Of a DNA stretch of 22,888 bases, positions 1 to 7,033 are shown piece after piece. Position 1 is the first letter of the stretch, and each line of letters opens with the position of its first letter. The stretch lies in assembly GCA_016711485.1 (NCBI GenBank), contig JADJSX010000013.1:1-22888 (forward strand). The letters run 5' to 3'. This DNA is from Leptospiraceae bacterium (GTDB taxonomy: Bacteria > Spirochaetota > Leptospiria > Leptospirales > Leptospiraceae). Both the position numbers and the translations under genes were made by a program. Under the pieces are notes generated by a model. That model did no database searches. It was not told the origin of the DNA and worked only from the letters and a program-made list of their open reading frames with translations.

Positions 1-487
1 GTGTTTTCGCATGAATGGGAAATATTTTGCCTTCCACCTCCTGTGGCTTATATCTTTCTTCTGTAAATACGTATTTTGCAGTTCAAACAATTTCCACCGG
101 ATTGAATGAATGGCTTAATTAATTTTATTAAAATTTGCTTGTAGACTCATATTAGCCTTCCTCAATTCTAGAACTGCCTTTGCGATTTCTAGTTTCTCTG
201 GATCATCTGAATACTTCGATAGAATTCTTCTTCGGTAATAGAATCTTGCCAGTCTTTGATAATTCTAAGGTATTAGTATCCGTAAGAGCGTTTTTTTACT
301 TCCATACTCAAAATCTTCTTGCGCTAAATCTTTGTTTAGCTATCTCTGTATTGGATTTTTTGGACTAGATGTCTTCGTCCATCGCCCTTAATGACCTCGA
401 TGCTACTTTGTCCTTGAAAGAAATTTTTCACGCTGCCTCCTACCATCTCACGATAGTCGATAGCTTCAAAAAATAATTCTCTGAGTC

Positions 488-1015
488 ATTTCGCATAATC
501 GTGAGTAAATGCGATTTTCGAAAACTCCTTTAAAGATTCCATTGGTTTGTTAGATGTAACAATTGTTAGTCGTCGGTTTTCGTAACGAGTATCAATCAAA
601 TCGTAAATCTTTTCCATCGCCCATGCTGTTTCTTTCTGGACTCCGAAATCATCTAATACTAGCACGGGAACTTTCTGGAATTCGTTTTCGATTGCTTTGC
701 TCGTAGATTCTACTTCACCCCAAAATTTATCTTTGTTCGTAAAGTTGCTTTGATTGCCTCAAGAAATCTTTTGATACTTTACAGTATCTAGCTTCGATTC
801 CTTTCTTGAAAATTAGATGGTTTAGGATTGCACAGGCTACATGTGTTTTCCGCTACCTGTCCCCACAGATAAAATCCTCTGTGGGAAATTTCTTTTCCTC
901 TAGAAATTCTCTGACTAAATCTGTATTCAGGAATAACCAAGCTGTCTTGTCATGTGTAGTTTCGATATTTAGATTTGCAAGCCTGTATCGGCTTGGAATA
1001 TTGGATTTGTCGTAG
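488..1015 (-). pseudogene. DnaC/IstB-like AAA+ ATPase (helicase loader / IS21 helper-like), inactivated
   Basis: Minus-strand translation gives ...EFLEEKKFPTEDFICGDR*RKTHVACAILNHL... with a stop codon inside the Walker A motif (G-x-x-G-K-T-H). After a frame change it gives ...KVPVLVLDDFGVQKETAWAMEKIYDLIDTRYENRRLTIVTSNKPMESLKEF..., which matches the Walker B and RYE/TSN motifs typical of IstB/DnaC. There is no continuous ORF on either strand. Confidence 0.45.
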
Positions 1016-1106
1016 AGTTTTTAATTCTAGAAAATTCTAATGAAAAGGCATACATTTACAATTATCTAACTTGGTGGTTGTGGCATTGTAAATGTATCGC
1101 CTCTTC

Positions 1107-1271
1107 TTACTCATGCTCTTCGCTACCACACGTATTGCATAAATCATTTACACATTCGCATAATTGCAATTCGCCGTTTGTCCTTGCTTGGTAGTATCCG
1201 AGTCCTGAACATGCGTAACATGTATTAGGTTTGCTTGCAGATACTAGTTCTAGTTTTGGCATTGCTGTCAT
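1107..1271 (-). CDS. Small cysteine-rich (zinc-ribbon-like) protein, 54 aa
   Basis: ORF MTAMPKLELVSASKPNTCYACSGLGYYQARTNGELQLCECVNDLCNTCGSEEHE has CxxC, CxC and CxxC spacing. AGGAGA lies 9 nt upstream of the ATG (caaggagaataagaacaaATG). It falls below the 60-aa cutoff of the ORF track. Confidence 0.35.
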   Translation of the reverse strand: MTAMPKLELVSASKPNTCYACSGLGYYQARTNGELQLCECVNDLCNTCGSEEHE

Positions 1272-1277
1272 TTGTTC

Positions 1278-1584
1278 TTATTCTCCTTGTATTTTTCTGA
1301 ATTCTTCTAGTGAATTACTGCGAATAGCCTCAATTGCCCGTTCTAGATTACTTTTGTTTTCGTCAATACCTATGAATTCGTAAAGCGACATACGTTCAAC
1401 GTTATCGCGTTTTTTCGTTATACAGGAAGATGACCACAGCTACAGATGACGAATGATGCTTCCGATTCATCATAAACTCTATATCAGTAATCGCTTCCAG
1501 TTTTGCTAACTCTTCTATCGCTTGCTTGCCGAGTTCGATTAACTCTGCTTTCGTTGTGGTTGTTCGTTTTAGTGTTTGTTCCAT
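1278..1584 (-). pseudogene. Hypothetical phage protein split by a +/-1 frameshift at an A6/T6 run (N-part 1402-1584, C-part 1278-1400)
   Basis: The 60-aa ORF MEQTLKRTTTTKAELIELGKQAIEELAKLEAITDIEF... stops at 1402. The adjacent frame continues directly as VERMSLYEFIGIDENKSNLERAIEAIRSNSLEEFRKIQGE*. The homopolymer tttttt at 1410-1415 is the likely slip site. Confidence 0.3.
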
Positions 1585-1599
1585 AGTTTTCTCCTTTTC

Positions 1600-1998
1600 T
1601 TAATTAAGTTTTGAAAAATCAGCCTTATCAGCCTTATCAGCCTTAAAATATTCAAAAGCTTCTCTACTTTTAAATCCAATAAGATGACTTCTATACGTAT
1701 TGTTTTTGTTTTTACTGAACCCTGCTTTTGATAATGCTCTGCCAATTCCATTGATATTAAAAGATAATTTCGGGTGATTGGTTGATAAAAATTCTAGAAC
1801 TTTAGAGGCTGTTAGCCATTTTGCGCTTTCAGATTCTTTTCCTGCCGGTTCAAAGTGTCTGCCTATTACATCGTATTCGTTATGATTGCGTTCGTATTGT
1901 CTTGCGTTATCTATGATCTCATTTTCTTCTTTTGGGGATAAAAGAATTTCGTTTCCTTCGAGTTCAAGGTATTCGTTATATACCTGTGCTAATACCAT
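1600..1998 (-). CDS. C-terminal fragment of a phage/plasmid primase-type replication protein (fragment 3 of 3)
   Basis: The 132-aa ORF overlaps the end of the P-loop ORF by 10 nt in another frame, so it looks like a downstream continuation after a frameshift. No independent RBS is evident. Confidence 0.35.
   Translation of the reverse strand: MVLAQVYNEYLELEGNEILLSPKEENEIIDNARQYERNHNEYDVIGRHFEPAGKESESAKWLTASKVLEFLSTNHPKLSFNINGIGRALSKAGFSKNKNNTYRSHLIGFKSREAFEYFKADKADKADFSKLN
1618..1654. repeat. 9-bp tandem repeat (atcagcctt) x about 4, in-frame, encoding (KAD)n at the C-terminus of the 1600-1998 ORF
   Basis: Direct reading: agccttatc agccttatc agccttatc agcctta. The translated ORF ends ...FKADKADKADFSKLN. 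Confidence 0.8.
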
Positions 1999-2552
1999 TC
2001 CTTATTGATTCTAAGGAATTTATCGAATTTTAATTTTTCCTCTACGGTAACTACTATGAATCTACGATTTTCGGTATCCCATAAAGGCTCTTCTACGTTG
2101 CATGAGCCAAGAAACGATACTGTTCTGTTGAATCGCTCTGGGTCTTTTCCGTAAGCCCTTCTTGCGATTGCTCCCGTATTTGAAATGAATCCTCTCAGTT
2201 GATCTGCTTCAAAACGATTGCTTGCGATTCCTTCCAATTCGTCTAAGTCCCAAAACATACATGTTGAGGCTAATTGTAAGCTGTCTTTAGATTTGAATTC
2301 GACATACCTTGCCGAATTCTGATATTTCGCTCTGATAAATGCCGGAGCAAAGTTTGTGCAAAATATTGTTTTGCCCTTACCGCCTCTATCTGACTGAATA
2401 AGGAAGCAATATTCGTTAATGAAATTTGGAACGAATACAGAATGAATCGCCATCGTATACCATTTTTTGAAATAATGTGCAACATCTATTTTATTGGTAT
2501 ATTTGAAACAGTTGACCATTTCACTCAAATAATCCTTATCCCCTTTTTCCAT
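1989..2552 (-). CDS. P4/D5-family primase C-terminal NTPase domain (SF3-helicase-like P-loop) fragment, also called VirE-like
   Basis: Walker A DRGGKGKT and Walker B-like FWDLDEL are present. The stretch GAIARRAYGKDPERFNRTVSFLGSCNVEEPLWDTENRRFIVVTV matches the conserved TGGD-x-ar-x-y...tN-x-P...wRR...i-x-F block of the phage/plasmid primase P4-family C-terminal domain. It is flanked by a stop and a frame change relative to the upstream N-terminal ORF. Confidence 0.55.
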   Translation of the reverse strand: MEKGDKDYLSEMVNCFKYTNKIDVAHYFKKWYTMAIHSVFVPNFINEYCFLIQSDRGGKGKTIFCTNFAPAFIRAKYQNSARYVEFKSKDSLQLASTCMFWDLDELEGIASNRFEADQLRGFISNTGAIARRAYGKDPERFNRTVSFLGSCNVEEPLWDTENRRFIVVTVEEKLKFDKFLRINKEWY

Positions 2553-2649
2553 TTGCCGTTAAATGATTGAATGTATTCGATGAGTGGGTTATAATTTCTG
2601 ACAAAAGAAGAATTGAGGCTAATACGAATTGTCGACGGATGAACATCTT

Positions 2650-3108
2650 TTAATTTTGGATTAGTAAGGAGTTCTTTGTAAACGTCGTTGAATATAATTT
2701 CACTCCATTGCCTGAATTCTGTTTCGTTTTTCTTTTGTATTCGATGAGTCCTGAAATAGTATCTCTTCTGAAATCGTATTTAGCGGATAACGCCGATTCG
2801 AGAATAGTAAACTCTGTAGTTTCGTTTACGGAAAAATTTACAAAATCTTTTTTCTCTTTTTTCTTTTCGGTTACTGGTTGATAGGCGACTTGGAATTTGG
2901 CTTTCAATTCCGCATTTGTAATTTCTTTTATTCTACTTTCGATAAATCCCTTATAGGATTTTTCGACTTTGTTCATGATCGAAATGGAAGGACATTCTAA
3001 AATAATTTCCTTATCAGTATTTTTAACTACTGTCAACGGATGAATGAATAGAGTGTATTCCCCTAGTGCCACATCAGACTTCAATAAATTTAAAACTTCT
3101 TGCCACAT
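2650..3108 (-). CDS. N-terminal fragment of a replication initiator with a DnaA-N-like start (fragment 1 of 3)
   Basis: MWQEVLNLLKSDVALGEYTLFIHPLTVVKNTDKEIILECPSISIMNKVEKSY resembles the DnaA N-terminal domain pattern lWqq-x-L...f-x-Wi-x-pL...l-x-l-x-pn-x-f...v. A TAA stop is followed in-frame by more ORF, then a +1 shift into the P-loop ORF. Confidence 0.4.
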   Translation of the reverse strand: MWQEVLNLLKSDVALGEYTLFIHPLTVVKNTDKEIILECPSISIMNKVEKSYKGFIESRIKEITNAELKAKFQVAYQPVTEKKKEKKDFVNFSVNETTEFTILESALSAKYDFRRDTISGLIEYKRKTKQNSGNGVKLYSTTFTKNSLLIQN

Positions 3109-3109
3109 A

Positions 3110-3394
3110 CTACGCCGCTTTCCTTTTTGTTATTTTTTTATTTTGTGTAATGGAGATATTTTTATAAGCCAATTTATTATCTAGTATAGAGCGTTCGCCT
3201 ACTAGTTGTTTGCCTGTGAGATGAACAAGATTTTTTAGCAGTAGAGCCAAGTCTTCTATCGTGGAATTTTGAATAATGTCAGATGGAATTGCAGGTAGAA
3301 AGAATTCTATATAGAATTTATCTATCTTGAGTGTATTTTGTAACTCTAAGGATTTCTTTCGTGGCTCTATGATTTGCTTTCTGTCGTTGTTCAT
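3110..3394 (-). CDS. Hypothetical phage protein, 94 aa
   Basis: ORF is tightly packed with its neighbours (a 3-nt gap to the next start). It lies in the same orientation as the integrase module. Confidence 0.4.
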   Translation of the reverse strand: MNNDRKQIIEPRKKSLELQNTLKIDKFYIEFFLPAIPSDIIQNSTIEDLALLLKNLVHLTGKQLVGERSILDNKLAYKNISITQNKKITKRKAA

Positions 3395-3404
3395 AATTAT
3401 AAAC

Positions 3405-3617
3405 CTAGTCCTGATTTGTAATTCGATACGGAATATTTAGCTGATCTGCGATAGCGAAAAGATTCTCTTTCTCGATATGCTTTACTAAGCCCTTATGGTA
3501 ATTTCTTGCCGTGCTTGCAGAGATTTTAAGAAAATTCTGCAATTCTCCAGCATCAGAAAATCTTATTTGCATTTGACTAAATGCCTCCTGTTCTAGTTCT
3601 TCTACTGTAGTAATCAT
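3405..3617 (-). CDS. Small HTH DNA-binding protein, excisionase/AlpA-like
   Basis: 70 aa. The segment LKISASTARNYHKGLV looks like a helix-turn-helix. The gene overlaps the integrase stop by 4 nt (ATGA-type coupling) and sits immediately downstream of int. Confidence 0.5.
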   Translation of the reverse strand: MITTVEELEQEAFSQMQIRFSDAGELQNFLKISASTARNYHKGLVKHIEKENLFAIADQLNIPYRITNQD

Positions 3618-4501
3618 TTGGATTCCCTTTCTAAGTTTTTATAATTCTCGAAATGTTGTTTGTTGATTGCGGTTACATCTACGTTAGCCTTAACTAGATA
3701 GTATTTTTTTACTGTAGCTTCTGAGTTTCCGAAAGCGTCTTCGCAAAGTTCATGTAAAGGAATTTGCGGATTTTCCTTGATGACTTCGTTAATTGATTTG
3801 TGTCTGATTAAGTGCGGTCGAATAGGTCTAGTCGTAAATTTACTGGCATCCCTCATCCACTTCTGAACGGTTCCTACTGCAATATGTTTTTTGGTAGAGA
3901 CGGGACTTTGGAATAACCAGATAGTAGAGCCAAATTCGATGACTATATTTTCATATAGCTCTTTAGGTATCCAAGTTTCGAATTCATATCCGCCTTTTCG
4001 TAAAAACCGGATAGAGTAGCCTTGGCTGATTTTTTCAAATCTGCAATTGCTTAACTTTATCTTAATTGTTTCCGTTACCCTCAGAGATGTTGTATTAATG
4101 AAGTCAATGAGTAGAGCTAATCGGATATCTGAATTCTCTTTTGCTAGTCGTAAGTCTTCTGGCGTTGGAATATCATTCGACATGACTGTTTTCGTAACTA
4201 ATCTTATCTTGAATAACTTAAGGGCTTCTCTGTAATATATTTCCTGTTCTTGTATTCTTGCTCTGAATAGAGTTAGTCGAACGATATGTATAATTGCCTT
4301 GCGTAAATTGCTTTTACTCGACATTCCTATCGTGCGTGTTTCTGAATAATTTTGTAGAAACCGAAGCGCATTATTCGGTGTTAGCCCGTCTTTTTTTTGG
4401 TCTAAGAATTTCTGGAAATGGATCCCGTAATATTTGTAGTTTCTCGAAAGTGGGGGTTCTAATATTTTTAATGTTTTTTTTAGGTTTGGAGGCTTTTTCA
4501 T
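3614..4501 (-). CDS. int: Tyrosine-type site-specific integrase/recombinase
   Basis: 295 aa. Box I is LRVTETI (catalytic Arg). Box II is RPHLIRHKSI (H-x-x-R-H). The C-terminal KKYYLVKA supplies the catalytic Tyr. A SAM-like N-terminal region is present. Confidence 0.8.
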   Translation of the reverse strand: MKKPPNLKKTLKILEPPLSRNYKYYGIHFQKFLDQKKDGLTPNNALRFLQNYSETRTIGMSSKSNLRKAIIHIVRLTLFRARIQEQEIYYREALKLFKIRLVTKTVMSNDIPTPEDLRLAKENSDIRLALLIDFINTTSLRVTETIKIKLSNCRFEKISQGYSIRFLRKGGYEFETWIPKELYENIVIEFGSTIWLFQSPVSTKKHIAVGTVQKWMRDASKFTTRPIRPHLIRHKSINEVIKENPQIPLHELCEDAFGNSEATVKKYYLVKANVDVTAINKQHFENYKNLERESK

Positions 4502-4581
4502 AGTTTTTTATCGACTAGGGAAAACCGGAACTTTAAGCTAGTTTTGCTTTTGTTTAGTATCTGTATAGTAGAGTGTCAGTC

Positions 4582-4589
4582 CTGCTGGT
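4582..4589. repeat. 8-bp direct repeat ctgctggt, left copy (putative target-site duplication)
   Basis: An identical 8-mer is present at 4733-4740, immediately outside the inverted repeats. Confidence 0.6.
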
Positions 4590-4732
4590 CAATGTCATTA
4601 AGTTAAGGATTTCTAACCACGAAGAGCACGAAGTTCACGAAGGATTTTCAATGTAATCTTCTCTTTTCTTCGTGTTCTTCGCGCCCTTCGTGGTTAATTT
4701 TTTTTCTGTTTTCTTAACTTAATGACATTGGG
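4590..4732. mobile_element. MITE-like miniature inverted-repeat element (143 bp), or alternatively an att-site palindrome
   Basis: A 19-nt terminal inverted repeat caatgtcattaagttaagg (4590-4608) pairs with tcttaacttaatgacattg (4712-4730), matching at 18 of 19 positions. The element is flanked by the 8-bp direct repeats ctgctggt and contains an internal long hairpin plus a T-run. It has no coding capacity. Confidence 0.55.
4615..4707 (+). terminator. Long imperfect hairpin followed by T8. A rho-independent terminator-like structure inside the MITE-like element.
   Basis: aaccacgaagagcacgaag (4615-4633) pairs with cttcgtgttcttcgcgcccttcgtggtt (4669-4696), using the repeated cacgaag/cttcgtg units. 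The run taatttttttt follows at 4697-4707. Confidence 0.5.
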
Positions 4733-4740
4733 CTGCTGGT
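4733..4740. repeat. 8-bp direct repeat ctgctggt, right copy
   Basis: Pairs with 4582-4589. Confidence 0.6.
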
Positions 4741-4801
4741 GAACAATGTATGGACTACTGCATAAAAAGTAAACACTTTGTTCGAAAATACTTAGTGCGA
4801 C

Positions 4802-4828
4802 TTGACAAAACTGGTATAAGCGTAAAAT
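4802..4828 (+). promoter_or_regulatory. Candidate sigma70-type promoter for the cyclase gene (TTGACA-15-TAAAAT), giving a near-leaderless start
   Basis: ttgaca lies at 4802-4807 and taaaat at 4823-4828. The ATG is at 4836. The spacer is short, at 15 nt. Confidence 0.2.
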
Positions 4829-4835
4829 CGAATCT

Positions 4836-6044
4836 ATGCTTCGTAGACAAATTTCGATTACACTCGCAAGATATTTTAGATTACATCTAAAAGAAGAATT
4901 AAATAAAAGTGAAGATTTATTAAATCTAATTACTCTCGAAGGAATTCCCTTTCGAGAATTGACCGCAACCATGTGCGCCAATTTAGAAATTGATTTTCCC
5001 GAATTACGAACATTAGCCGATCCTGAATTTAATTTATTTCGGAAATGGAATTCAAAATGGAAAACCAACGAATCAAAAGTTTTGGATTATGAAAAATCAA
5101 CTTACAAACTTTACAATCAAATTTATTACGAAAGAATTTTAGACCTTTCAAAAGGAACAAAAGAAAGTCGTCTCAAATTGGAAGAAAAATTAAAATCTCA
5201 GCTAAGTAAATCTAGTTTTTTTGGGCATCGTGTTACGTTTGGACTTTTTTTTCAAGGTGAAAGTTATATGCGTGAGTCTATTCGTGAAATTTTTTCTCTT
5301 CAAAATGAATTTTCATCTGAAGAAGCATACCAAATTCTTTTAGAACAAAGTGATTTTATCGCTAAATGCGGTTACGATTATTTTGATTCTATCGTTCAAG
5401 AAGCCTACGAAAAAAGTGACTCTCTTTTGAAAAATATTTTGCCAAATTCAGTTGCGGAAGAGCTAAAAGCAAATGGAAAAGTAACTCCGATTCATGTAGA
5501 TGCTGCGACTGTTTTATTTACAGATTTTTCTGGATTTACAAAAATTTCAACGCGAATGAGTCCGCAAGAATTAATCCGCGAACTAGACATTTGTTTTTCC
5601 GCCTTCGATTCCATTATAGGAAAATACAATTTGGAAAAAATTAAAACCATCGGCGATGCTTACCTTTGTGTGGGAGGACTTTTTGGAAATGACCCACTTC
5701 ATGCAGCAAACTCTTGTTATGCGGCATTAGAAATTTCTGAATTTATTCGAAAACGAAAATTAGAGAAAGAAAAATCAGGTTTAGAATATTGGGATATTCG
5801 AATAGGACTTCATACCGGCGAATTAGTAGCAGGTGTCATTGGTGATAAAAAATTTGCATTTGATATTTGGGGGGATACAGTCAACACCGCAAGCAGAATG
5901 GAATCGAGTGGAGAAATTGGGAAAATCAATGTATCAGAACAACTTTATCAGGCAACTAAAGACAAATTTCATTTTGTTCCTCGATGCGAATTTGATGTAA
6001 AAGGCAAAGGTAAAATGAAACTATTTCTATTAACGTCAGGTTAA
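4836..6044 (+). CDS. Class III adenylate/guanylate cyclase with an uncharacterised ~200-aa N-terminal domain
   Basis: The C-terminal CYC domain is clear: VLFTDFSGFTKIS...KTIGDAYLCVGG...RIGLHTGELVAGVIG...FDIWGDTVNTASRMES...G-x-I-x-VS. This gives the metal-binding Asp, transition-state Asn/Arg and the dimer-interface motifs. Confidence 0.85.
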   Translation: MLRRQISITLARYFRLHLKEELNKSEDLLNLITLEGIPFRELTATMCANLEIDFPELRTLADPEFNLFRKWNSKWKTNESKVLDYEKSTYKLYNQIYYERILDLSKGTKESRLKLEEKLKSQLSKSSFFGHRVTFGLFFQGESYMRESIREIFSLQNEFSSEEAYQILLEQSDFIAKCGYDYFDSIVQEAYEKSDSLLKNILPNSVAEELKANGKVTPIHVDAATVLFTDFSGFTKISTRMSPQELIRELDICFSAFDSIIGKYNLEKIKTIGDAYLCVGGLFGNDPLHAANSCYAALEISEFIRKRKLEKEKSGLEYWDIRIGLHTGELVAGVIGDKKFAFDIWGDTVNTASRMESSGEIGKINVSEQLYQATKDKFHFVPRCEFDVKGKGKMKLFLLTSG

Positions 6045-6167: not shown

Positions 6168-6917
6168 TTACAATATCCCAAATTCCGCACAATATTTTTT
6201 AAAAAGTGCAAAACCGGAGAGGTCATTTGGTGTTATCCGGTAGTGCAATTCGTTTTTTAGATAGGTGTTTAACATTATCTGCGTAAATCTTTTTTCGGAA
6301 AGTATAATTTCATCTATATGTAAAAGTCCATATTCCAGAGATTCTAGAAAAAAAGAGTCAGGGTATATTTTGGTTTTAGGAAAAGCCCAAAATGCAAATA
6401 CAAAAGAAAATCCTGTCTCTTCATTCCACCATTGTGCTAAATCTCTGACTTCGTAAACCGAAGAATCCCATTCTGCCAGAAGTGCATTATCTCCAAATAA
6501 CAAATGGGAACTTTTTCCAGTTTGAATTTTTTCCAATATTTGGTTTGGCTCTGTTGGAATAACGTTAATCAATCTTCCAGTTTGTTTTTTAAGTAGAGTT
6601 TGTATTAGTGCTACACTACTACGAGATCCAGAATCTGTATAAATTTCTTCAGGTGGAAAATTTTCATTTTTATTTTTAAAAAACAATATAGAACGAACTT
6701 TGTCTTTAGCACAAACTCCGCATACTCTGGCATACGAAAGAACGGATTCATTTCGAATACATTCCACAGAAGAAATGAGCGCAGTATCCAAATCTCCTCG
6801 TAACAATAAATCTTTTAGAACAGATGGATTTTCATATACCAATTCATGATTTCCTAATTTTTCGAATCCATACGTGAGTGGGCGTGCATTCAAGTGTTTT
6901 ACAATTCCGATTTTCAT
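6168..6917 (-). CDS. mqnA: Menaquinone biosynthesis (futalosine pathway) protein of the MqnA/MqnD family, a chorismate dehydratase-like enzyme
   Basis: The N-terminus MKIGIVKHLNARPLTYGFEKL...GDLDTALISSVE matches the riG-x-i-x-yLN-x-x-PL...G-x-lD-x-al-x-S signature of the MqnA/MqnD (VitK2 biosynthesis) fold. The length is 249 aa. Confidence 0.7.
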   Translation of the reverse strand: MKIGIVKHLNARPLTYGFEKLGNHELVYENPSVLKDLLLRGDLDTALISSVECIRNESVLSYARVCGVCAKDKVRSILFFKNKNENFPPEEIYTDSGSRSSVALIQTLLKKQTGRLINVIPTEPNQILEKIQTGKSSHLLFGDNALLAEWDSSVYEVRDLAQWWNEETGFSFVFAFWAFPKTKIYPDSFFLESLEYGLLHIDEIILSEKRFTQIMLNTYLKNELHYRITPNDLSGFALFKKYCAEFGIL

Positions 6918-7033
6918 ATTAATGCTAGATTTATGGAATAGACTTTTTTGGAAATTAGGAATTTAGTAACACAAATCGAAATTAGCCGCTATAGATAAAA
7001 TATCTCTATTCAAAGTGTTAGCGATCAACTGGA

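Follow-up and report, generated by a model that had tools for sequence, protein, structure and literature searches.

The stretch of DNA analysed here, referred to as the window, comprises 22,888 nt read on the forward strand of contig JADJSX010000013.1 (assembly GCA_016711485.1) from a Leptospiraceae bacterium. Its left part, positions 1–4589, belongs to a genomic island with a tyrosine integrase gene close to the island end, and further right lies a gene for a class III adenylate/guanylate cyclase. Between the two genes, at 4590–4730, sits a 141-bp element delimited by terminal inverted repeats (TIRs) and flanked by a direct repeat with the properties of a target-site duplication (TSD). It is very probably a miniature inverted-repeat transposable element (MITE) that derives from, and can be mobilised solely by, a DDE transposase of the IS4-subgroup (IS4 family of insertion sequences (ISs), IS1675-like). 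MITEs of this kind are already known, and the present copy is new. Going inward from the left end, the order of parts is TIR, 6 nt, hairpin, a run of eight T (T8), about 12 nt resembling the end of IS1675, and TIR:

4580–4589, no strand: left TSD copy, TCCTGCTGGT, the last 8 bp of which are CTGCTGGT
4590–4607, + strand: left TIR, CAATGTCATTAAGTTAAG, identical to both ends of IS1675
4614–4642, + strand: left arm of the inner hairpin, TAACCACGAAG-AG-CACGAAG-TT-CACGAAG, three units with a 9-nt period
4643–4667, + strand: loop of the inner hairpin, 25 nt, leaving no room for a gene
4668–4696, + strand: right arm of the inner hairpin, CTTCGTG-TT-CTTCGCG-CC-CTTCGTGGTTA
4698–4705, + strand: T8 run after the hairpin, terminator-like for transcription coming from the left end
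4701–4712, − strand: subterminal stretch by the right TIR, AAAACAGAAAAA, in which the match to the IS1675 end continues past the TIR
4713–4730, − strand: right TIR, CAATGTCATTAAGTTAAG on this strand
4731–4740, no strand: right TSD copy, GGCTGCTGGT

A first-pass annotation had reported a 143-bp element with 19-bp TIRs at this place. The element is there, but it measures 141 bp from TIR to TIR, and the figure of 143 includes the GG at 4731–4732. The TIRs likewise exist, but they are perfect over 18 nt only, since position 19 differs between the left end (G) and the right end (A). In the window, CAATGTCATTAAGTTAAG and its reverse complement match at these two places alone, even when three mismatches are allowed, against 0.08 matches expected by chance. 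The hairpin of CACGAAG/CTTCGTG units followed by T8 is present as the annotation described it, with arms of 29 nt each that are 86% complementary. Compared with shuffled sequences, the whole element folds with z = -10.9 on the + strand and z = -12.3 on the − strand, and it contains no open reading frame (ORF) of at least 60 aa. The central proposal of the annotation, namely that a non-autonomous transposon bounded by TIRs and a TSD lies here, is borne out: both features are non-random, and the ends are those of IS4-type transposons.

This assignment came from distant relatives of the ends. In a BLASTN comparison of the element with plasmids, 58 Lactococcus records were 97% identical to window 4701–4734 over 34–35 nt, and the matched sites adjoin a gene annotated as 'IS4-like element IS1675 family transposase'. 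IS1675 is 1604 bp long, its 27-nt inverted repeats open with the same 18-mer, and its TSDs are perfect over 10 bp at two independent sites with palindromic targets (GGGTATACCC and GAGTATACTC). An exact scan for the 18-mer in one genome per species (596 Gb, about 17 matches expected by uniform chance) located this end at no fewer than 120 genomic loci in Bacteroidota, Bacillota, Chloroflexota and Pseudomonadota. Hosts among the matches listed include Flavobacterium, Aquimarina, Chitinophagaceae, Prolixibacteraceae, many Clostridia, Erysipelotrichaceae, Lactobacillus, Streptococcus, Chloroflexota and Gammaproteobacteria. The same listed matches contain 54 inverted end pairs, 44 of which enclose 72–346 bp and 10 of which enclose 1.43–1.70 kb (1433–1697 bp). 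The long elements carry single ORFs of about 390–445 aa; in all, about 12 elements of 1.43–1.70 kb besides IS1675 have the 18-mer at both ends together with an ORF for an IS4-family transposase. The transposases of IS1675 and of a Prolixibacteraceae element pass the models NCBIfam NF033592 (IS4 family transposase) and Pfam DDE_Tnp_1, and those of the full-length partners align weakly but significantly to Escherichia coli InsG (E = 1e-7 to 1e-14). Among the matches listed, the partner transposases are just 25–47% identical to that of IS1675, although the 18-nt end is identical.

The IS4-subgroup has been described by an end consensus of -AATR--------WTW----, direct repeats of 10–13 bp and a size of 1400–1650 bp (De Palmenaer et al. 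2008, PMC2266710). CAATGTCATTAAGTTAAG fits this consensus with AATG at positions 2–5 and TTA at positions 14–16. The lengths of the full-length partners are in accord with the size given for the subgroup, and TSDs of 9–10 bp agree with its direct repeats, at the lower edge of the range. When the left TIR is extended by its next three bases (GAT), it matches the end of IS4 from E. coli K-12 at 15 of 21 positions (TAATGCCGATCAGTTAAGGAT versus CAATGTCATTAAGTTAAGGAT); both ends are homologous and fit the consensus, and the K-12 copy of IS4 also has a long duplication, of 12 bp. Unlike the window element, IS4 is autonomous, with a length of 1426 bp, and its transposase InsG is only about 20–22% identical to the IS1675-like enzymes. 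The closer counterpart, IS1675 from Lactococcus plasmids, shares with the window element the 18-nt terminus, about 12 nt of subterminal sequence at the right end, and a target that is palindromic in part or in full and is duplicated over 10 bp. It differs in encoding a 439-aa transposase within its 1604 bp and in residing in a lactic acid bacterium, whereas the window element is a non-coding 141-bp sequence with another interior in a spirochaete.

The nearest counterparts in kind are the IS-derived MITEs of 72–346 bp that have the same ends in Flavobacterium, Chitinophagaceae, Clostridia, Chloroflexota and others. These are also short and non-coding, with TIRs of a resident IS family, TSDs of the length typical of that family and strongly folding interiors. 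One locus (L074) contains a 189-bp MITE in two copies with different 10-bp TSDs, and another (L032) contains three MITE copies with these ends. The interior of the window element differs from all of them: it had no match in the genome loci listed and is not shared with the other 44 MITEs recovered, and the interiors of MITEs with these ends are otherwise unrelated to one another among the matches listed. The first-pass annotation had proposed a comparison with the ends of resident IS elements. Such a comparison did reveal ends identical to those of IS1675 and of full-length IS4-type elements, but in other genomes. We found no description in the literature of MITEs tied to IS1675, nor of an IS4-type MITE in Leptospira.

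The flanking repeat is in line with the same family. In the window, CTGCTGGT occurs at 4582–4589 and 4733–4740 alone, with 0.15 occurrences expected by chance. The annotation had read these copies as an 8-bp duplication with a GG spacer on the right. In a register flush with both TIRs, GG instead forms the first two bases of a 10-bp TSD whose copies, TCCTGCTGGT and GGCTGCTGGT, are identical at 8 of 10 positions, and the exact 8-mer starts 2 bp out from the right TIR, which is the offset that the 10-bp register predicts. Over the 54 listed pairs, the best flush TSD was 10 bp in 29 cases, 9 bp in 13 and 8 bp in three (one of them a perfect 8/8). A copy of IS1675 in L004 has a TSD decayed in a similar way (GAGTATACTC versus GGCTATACTC). 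The TSDs of elements with these ends are also strongly self-complementary, with a value of 0.51 compared with 0.28 ± 0.03 in shuffled sequences (e.g., CCCTTCGGG, CCCTAAAGGG and AGCAATTGCT), which indicates that such elements insert into small palindromes. The target core in the window, CCTGCTGG, scores 3/5 for self-complementarity.

The position of the element was then read against related islands. In islands with integrases 63–70% identical to that of the window, the gene order is integrase, two small ORFs, a protein of about 503 aa with DnaA_N/VapE similarity, and an IstB/DnaC-like ATPase. Window 1–4589 represents the same type of Leptospiraceae island as L254, L256 and L257. Two features adjoin the element on this side:

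3614–4501, − strand: tyrosine integrase; Phage_integrase E = 5e-4, below the Pfam cut-off; weakly XerA-like; homologues are named integrase or tyrosine recombinase
4502–4589, − strand: conserved island end upstream of the integrase, 83–85% identical over 75–82 nt to L253–L255 and L257/L258

A named homologue of the integrase comes from Leptospiraceae. Three related islands (L253/L254/L255 and L257/L258, with integrases 65–68% identical) align over 4502–4589 and lack the element. To the right of the MITE, island homology resumes for 13 nt (4733–4745). Read on the integrase strand, the window has GTTC ACCAGCAGCC, the MITE, ACCAGCAGGA and CTGACACTCTACTATACA, where L256 has GCTCACCAGCAGCATAGACACTCTACTATACA and L257 has GCTCTCCAGCAGGTGTGACACTCTACTATACA. 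ACCAGCAGGA, the reverse complement of the left TSD copy, is homologous to a CCAGCAG that occurs once in the related island ends; L256 and L257 have one CCAGCAG here and no element at this position. When the MITE and one of the 10-bp copies are taken out of the window, what remains has precisely the spacing of L256 and L257, and a junction predating the insertion would read GTGTCAGTCCTGCTGGTGAACAATG. The single CCAGCAG and the restored spacing are what an insertion event predicts, and the related island ends would thus represent an empty site at the level of the island family. An empty site had been put forward as a check by the first-pass annotation. Homologous islands may provide one at the family level, but the contigs of the same species all carry the element.

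The island end appears to have attracted such elements repeatedly. L256, whose integrase is 70% identical to that of the window, has an IS4-type end (CTTATCTTAATGACATTG, one mismatch) at its positions 59–76, 15 nt outside the conserved CACCAGCAG. This end is separate from that in the window, and elements with IS4-type ends have therefore struck this island end more than once. The L256 contig ends 58 nt inside its IS4-type element and L003, a contig of the window's own species, breaks inside the MITE; a repeat at which assembly stops could explain both breaks. The element had further been taken to mark the right-hand boundary of the mobile region. It does lie close to the island end, but island homology runs 13 nt past it, so the MITE sits just inside that end and does not define it. 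The proposed link between the element and a decayed IstB-like gene at 488–1015 was not sustained: in related islands the IstB/DnaC-like ATPase directly follows the VapE-like gene, which makes 488–1015 a component of the replication module that the island itself carries rather than a relic of IS21. Relative to L001, another contig of the same species, single-base deletions at 1998, 2544 and 2733 break the VapE gene of the window into three ORFs, and the IstB-like region contains stops. These lesions could be genuine decay or homopolymer sequencing errors.

The inner hairpin belongs to a widespread type of repeat. We scanned JGI metagenomes with the arm pattern AACCACGAAGNNCNCGAAGNNCACGAAG (AACC followed by three CACGAAG heptamers with a 9-nt period), which has 23 specified bases and a chance expectation well below one. 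It occurred at 120 or more metagenome loci, with 149 matches listed, and the IS4-type end was absent from the loci listed with three mismatches allowed. Both arms of 4614–4696 fit the class, with an AACC start, at least three CACGAAG units at 9-nt period and an inverted partner arm. Properties of the class were taken from the 68 listed matches with a clear inverted partner arm. Most of these hairpins have a total length of 66–290 nt, and the G+C content of their flanks ranges from 34 to 70%. The heptamers are 87–100% conserved on both arms, while the two-base (NN) spacers are complementary in 49% of cases compared with 37% for shuffled partners. A T-run follows on one side in nine of the 68 hairpins and on both sides in none. 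We rejected the view of these hairpins as ordinary terminators on account of the few T-runs, and that of purely structural conservation on account of strongly conserved heptamers next to barely complementary spacers. What defines these hairpins is therefore a short array of a 9-mer (CACGAAG-R-W) on each arm, the two arrays being inverted relative to each other; they are more than a mere stem and do not form a class of terminators.

Three of the 68 hairpins are long forms (431–507 nt) that enclose a gene of about 125 aa with a PDDEXK_3 domain (PF13366, E = 1e-36 to 1e-41):

L158, 460–890, − strand: nuclease-enclosing hairpin
L225, 12964–13470, − strand: nuclease-enclosing hairpin
L230, 7249–7704: nuclease-enclosing hairpin

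The gene in L230, the only one scanned against NCBIfam, matches TIGR04256 ('GxxExxY protein'). This arrangement suggests that the short hairpins may descend from a cassette with a nuclease gene and have lost that gene. Related designs with other units occur as well. Hairpins of CGCAAAG units with a 9-nt period lie within Flavobacterium MITEs (L035 2169–2320, L013 2872–3119 and L071 5961–6234), and stand-alone variants with AACCGCAAAG, ACCGCAGAG or CCACGAATT units are found elsewhere in L035, L096, L117 and L043. The inner hairpin of the window resembles the stand-alone CACGAAG hairpins in its AACC start, heptamer, 9-nt period and three units per arm. It differs in lying between IS4-type ends, which the stand-alone hairpins lack, and its 25-nt loop contains no gene, in contrast to the three nuclease-enclosing forms. 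Neither the window nor any of 18 metagenome hairpin loci matched an Rfam 15 family at gathering score, and a permissive scan of 4450–4850 returned only sub-threshold hairpins resembling miRNA precursors; two tRNAs appeared in the Rfam scans overall. No published description or name of the CACGAAG hairpin repeat was found in the literature. One tentative reading, less likely than not, is that the inner hairpin belongs to a class of selfish or mobile DNA that spans several phyla and is new to the literature. The class would consist of inverted 9-mer arrays (CACGAAG-R-W, with CGCAAAG and CGCAGAG among its variants), the long forms of which would bear a small GxxExxY/PDDEXK_3 nuclease gene and the short forms none.

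A parent element may account for the layout of the MITE. Full-length elements in L093, L067, L103 and L019 have a stable, inward-facing hairpin with a T-run 50–80 nt inside one end, and weaker versions are present in L008 and L092. Internal deletion of a full-length element with such an inward terminator near its end would leave TIR, hairpin, T-run, subterminal stretch and TIR in this order, and we infer that the MITE originated in this way. The transposase would have acted in trans, encoded by a full-length element either at another place in this genome or in an earlier host. Cut-and-paste transposition would then have placed it in the partly self-complementary site CCTGCTGG, within the last 15 bp or so of the integrase/VapE/DnaC-like island, between the integrase and the cyclase gene. 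Once there, the hairpin and T8 would halt + strand transcription arriving from the island side.

Several other readings of the locus compete with this one. The length of the exact direct repeat, 8 bp, had led the first-pass annotation to a mobilising transposase of the IS6, IS256, ISL3, IS66 or IS21 type, and the IstB/DnaC-like remnant at about 488–1015 seemed to offer a source. A MITE of such a transposon with a true 8-bp TSD, perhaps tied to this remnant, is scarcely credible. The ends match the IS4-subgroup and none of these five groups; a flush 8-bp register is best in only three of the 54 listed pairs, compared with 42 for 9–10 bp; and the 2-bp distance of the 8-mer from the right TIR is precisely that expected for 10 bp. 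The 9–10-bp mode and this offset together remove the basis for inferring those families from 8 bp, and the IstB-like gene is a standard component of this island type, following VapE in L254, L256 and L257. The annotation had also considered that the nested palindrome is the attachment (att) or recombination site of the adjacent integrase, in which case the CTGCTGGT repeats would be copies of the core site. In favour of this reading, the element adjoins the integrase gene, CCAGCAG on the − strand is kept at the integrase-proximal end of related islands, and an IS4-type end also lies near the CCAGCAG of a second related island, L256. Yet IS4-family ISs and MITEs at 120 or more unrelated loci have the very same 18-bp ends with no link to an integrase. 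The palindrome is not constant at the island end either: three related islands (L253/L254/L255 and L257/L258) have no such element by the integrase, and the end in L256 lies at a different position. Moreover, the repeats bracket the 141-bp unit, flush in the 10-bp register, and not the whole island, and neither in the window nor in L254, L256 or L257 does the integrase-proximal end share a direct repeat of at least 11 nt with other parts of the island. An att site is disfavoured because the palindrome is inconstant, the repeats flank the 141-bp unit alone and no island-flanking repeat was found; we consider it very unlikely.

The strong fold (z of about -11 to -12) and the T8 that follows the stem could also be expected of a regulatory element of the host, for instance a terminator or an insulator separating divergent genes, with no more than a resemblance to a transposon. 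This, too, is extremely improbable: in relatives, the cyclase orthologues lie among other genes and lack such an element, Rfam returned no matching family and only sub-threshold generic hairpins, and the ends are transposon ends. More weight falls on a composite origin, in which the hairpin was not inherited from the parent IS; instead, a CACGAAG 9-mer hairpin would have invaded an IS4-type MITE or been captured between two IS ends. The hairpin class stands alone at its metagenome loci, none of those listed having IS4 ends. Flavobacterium MITEs with the same ends (L035, L013 and L071) hold the analogous CGCAAAG-unit hairpins, stand-alone 9-mer hairpins occur elsewhere in the same loci (L035, L096, L117 and L043), and MITEs with these ends otherwise have unrelated interiors. 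Against nesting, no duplication or scar surrounds the hairpin inside the MITE, and full-length relatives already have a hairpin and T-run at this position. The inner hairpin is the only CACGAAG hairpin in the window, and related Leptospiraceae sequence amounting to about 110 kb contains none, so that arrival of the hairpin together with the MITE is mildly favoured over local invasion. We regard the composite origin as a possibility to be taken seriously, though on balance an unlikely one.

The interpretation as an IS4-type MITE itself has points that weigh against it. A true orthologous empty site was not found, since all three same-species contigs carry the element, and the relatives of the cyclase (66–74% amino acid identity) have different neighbours on both sides and are not syntenic. 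CCAGCAG itself is kept in the related island ends and could serve the island, for example as a promoter or core site. The two mismatches between the TSD copies are adjacent and at the outer end (TC versus GG), and a true 8-bp duplication with two extra bases keeps a small probability. A tblastn search with 12 family transposases as queries found no IS4-family transposase in the window. The 22.9 kb analysed from the source genome contain one copy of the element, and one further end of this type, that in L256, turned up in related Leptospiraceae contigs totalling about 110 kb. A pattern specific to the composite left junction had no match in viral contigs. As to function, the genes on the island side lie on the − strand, and there may be little + strand transcription for the hairpin to stop.

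Two features on either side of the element bear on its possible effects:

4836–6044, + strand: class III adenylate/guanylate cyclase, Guanylate_cyc E = 3.6e-52
4565–4592, − strand: promoter-like site TTGACC-16 nt-TACTAT directed toward the integrase, with TTG of the −35 hexamer contributed by the MITE end

The closest named relatives of the cyclase come from metagenome-assembled genomes of Leptospiraceae, and with the integrase homologue they point to an uncultured member of this family as the source. The promoter-like site, which faces away from the cyclase gene that the annotation had seen as a possible target of regulation, was the only one found, compared with 1.7 expected, and is thus not above chance. 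Its −10 hexamer TACTAT lies within the motif GACACTCTACTATACA, which is conserved in related islands. The MITE insertion turns the −35-like hexamer TTCACC into TTGACC at a 16-nt spacing, a change that could, judged from sequence, strengthen the putative integrase promoter. On the + strand, T8 begins 1 nt after the stem with its 29-nt arms; the 25-nt loop is far above that of a canonical terminator, and a simple terminator scan flags a 5-bp sub-stem alone.

Three metagenome contigs from the same species (L001–L003, 99.4–100% identical to the window) all contain the element, and the locus occurs in the samples GCA_020051655.1, ERZ22161298 and ERR1352927. L001, otherwise 99.8% identical, does not align left of window position 1477 (window 1–1476 versus L001 1–392), so the two assemblies disagree in the interior of the island. 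At 3605–3641, L001 has the 37-nt sequence TGAACTCAATATTGCTTCCTAAGGGTCGCAACATAAT in place of CTTC (window 4686–4689) in the last unit of the right hairpin arm. TGAACTCAATATTGCTTCCTAAGGGTCGCAACATAAT had no match in the other sequences compared and is either a small insertion or an assembly chimera. Separately, L002 lacks a 73-bp stretch, 6907–6979, at the 5′ end of an MqnA-like gene, with AATT microhomology at the borders of the missing part; the predicted product has 241 aa compared with 249 aa.

These results correct the annotation of the locus. The repeat next to the integrase is the footprint of an IS4-type MITE and not an att site, and the IstB-like remnant belongs to the island. Two aspects lift the element above a routine MITE, namely a perfect 18-nt end shared across phyla and a hairpin cargo of a class for which we found no description. 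The end is the same letter for letter in Lactococcus, Flavobacterium, Chloroflexota and Leptospiraceae, with transposases that have diverged to 25–47% identity, and from this one 18-nt end have sprung many MITE families that are unrelated to one another and favour palindromic targets. The element also exposes a very widespread hairpin repeat of CACGAAG 9-mer arrays, sometimes built around GxxExxY nuclease genes. If this class is what we tentatively propose, its nuclease-bearing forms would relate to the empty hairpins as ISs do to MITEs, or as a homing-endonuclease cassette does to its target, and the hairpin in the window would have ridden inside an IS4-type MITE into a Leptospiraceae genome seemingly otherwise devoid of such hairpins. 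Mobility of the hairpin class would, in turn, offer a testable mechanism for a long-unexplained multi-copy gene family.

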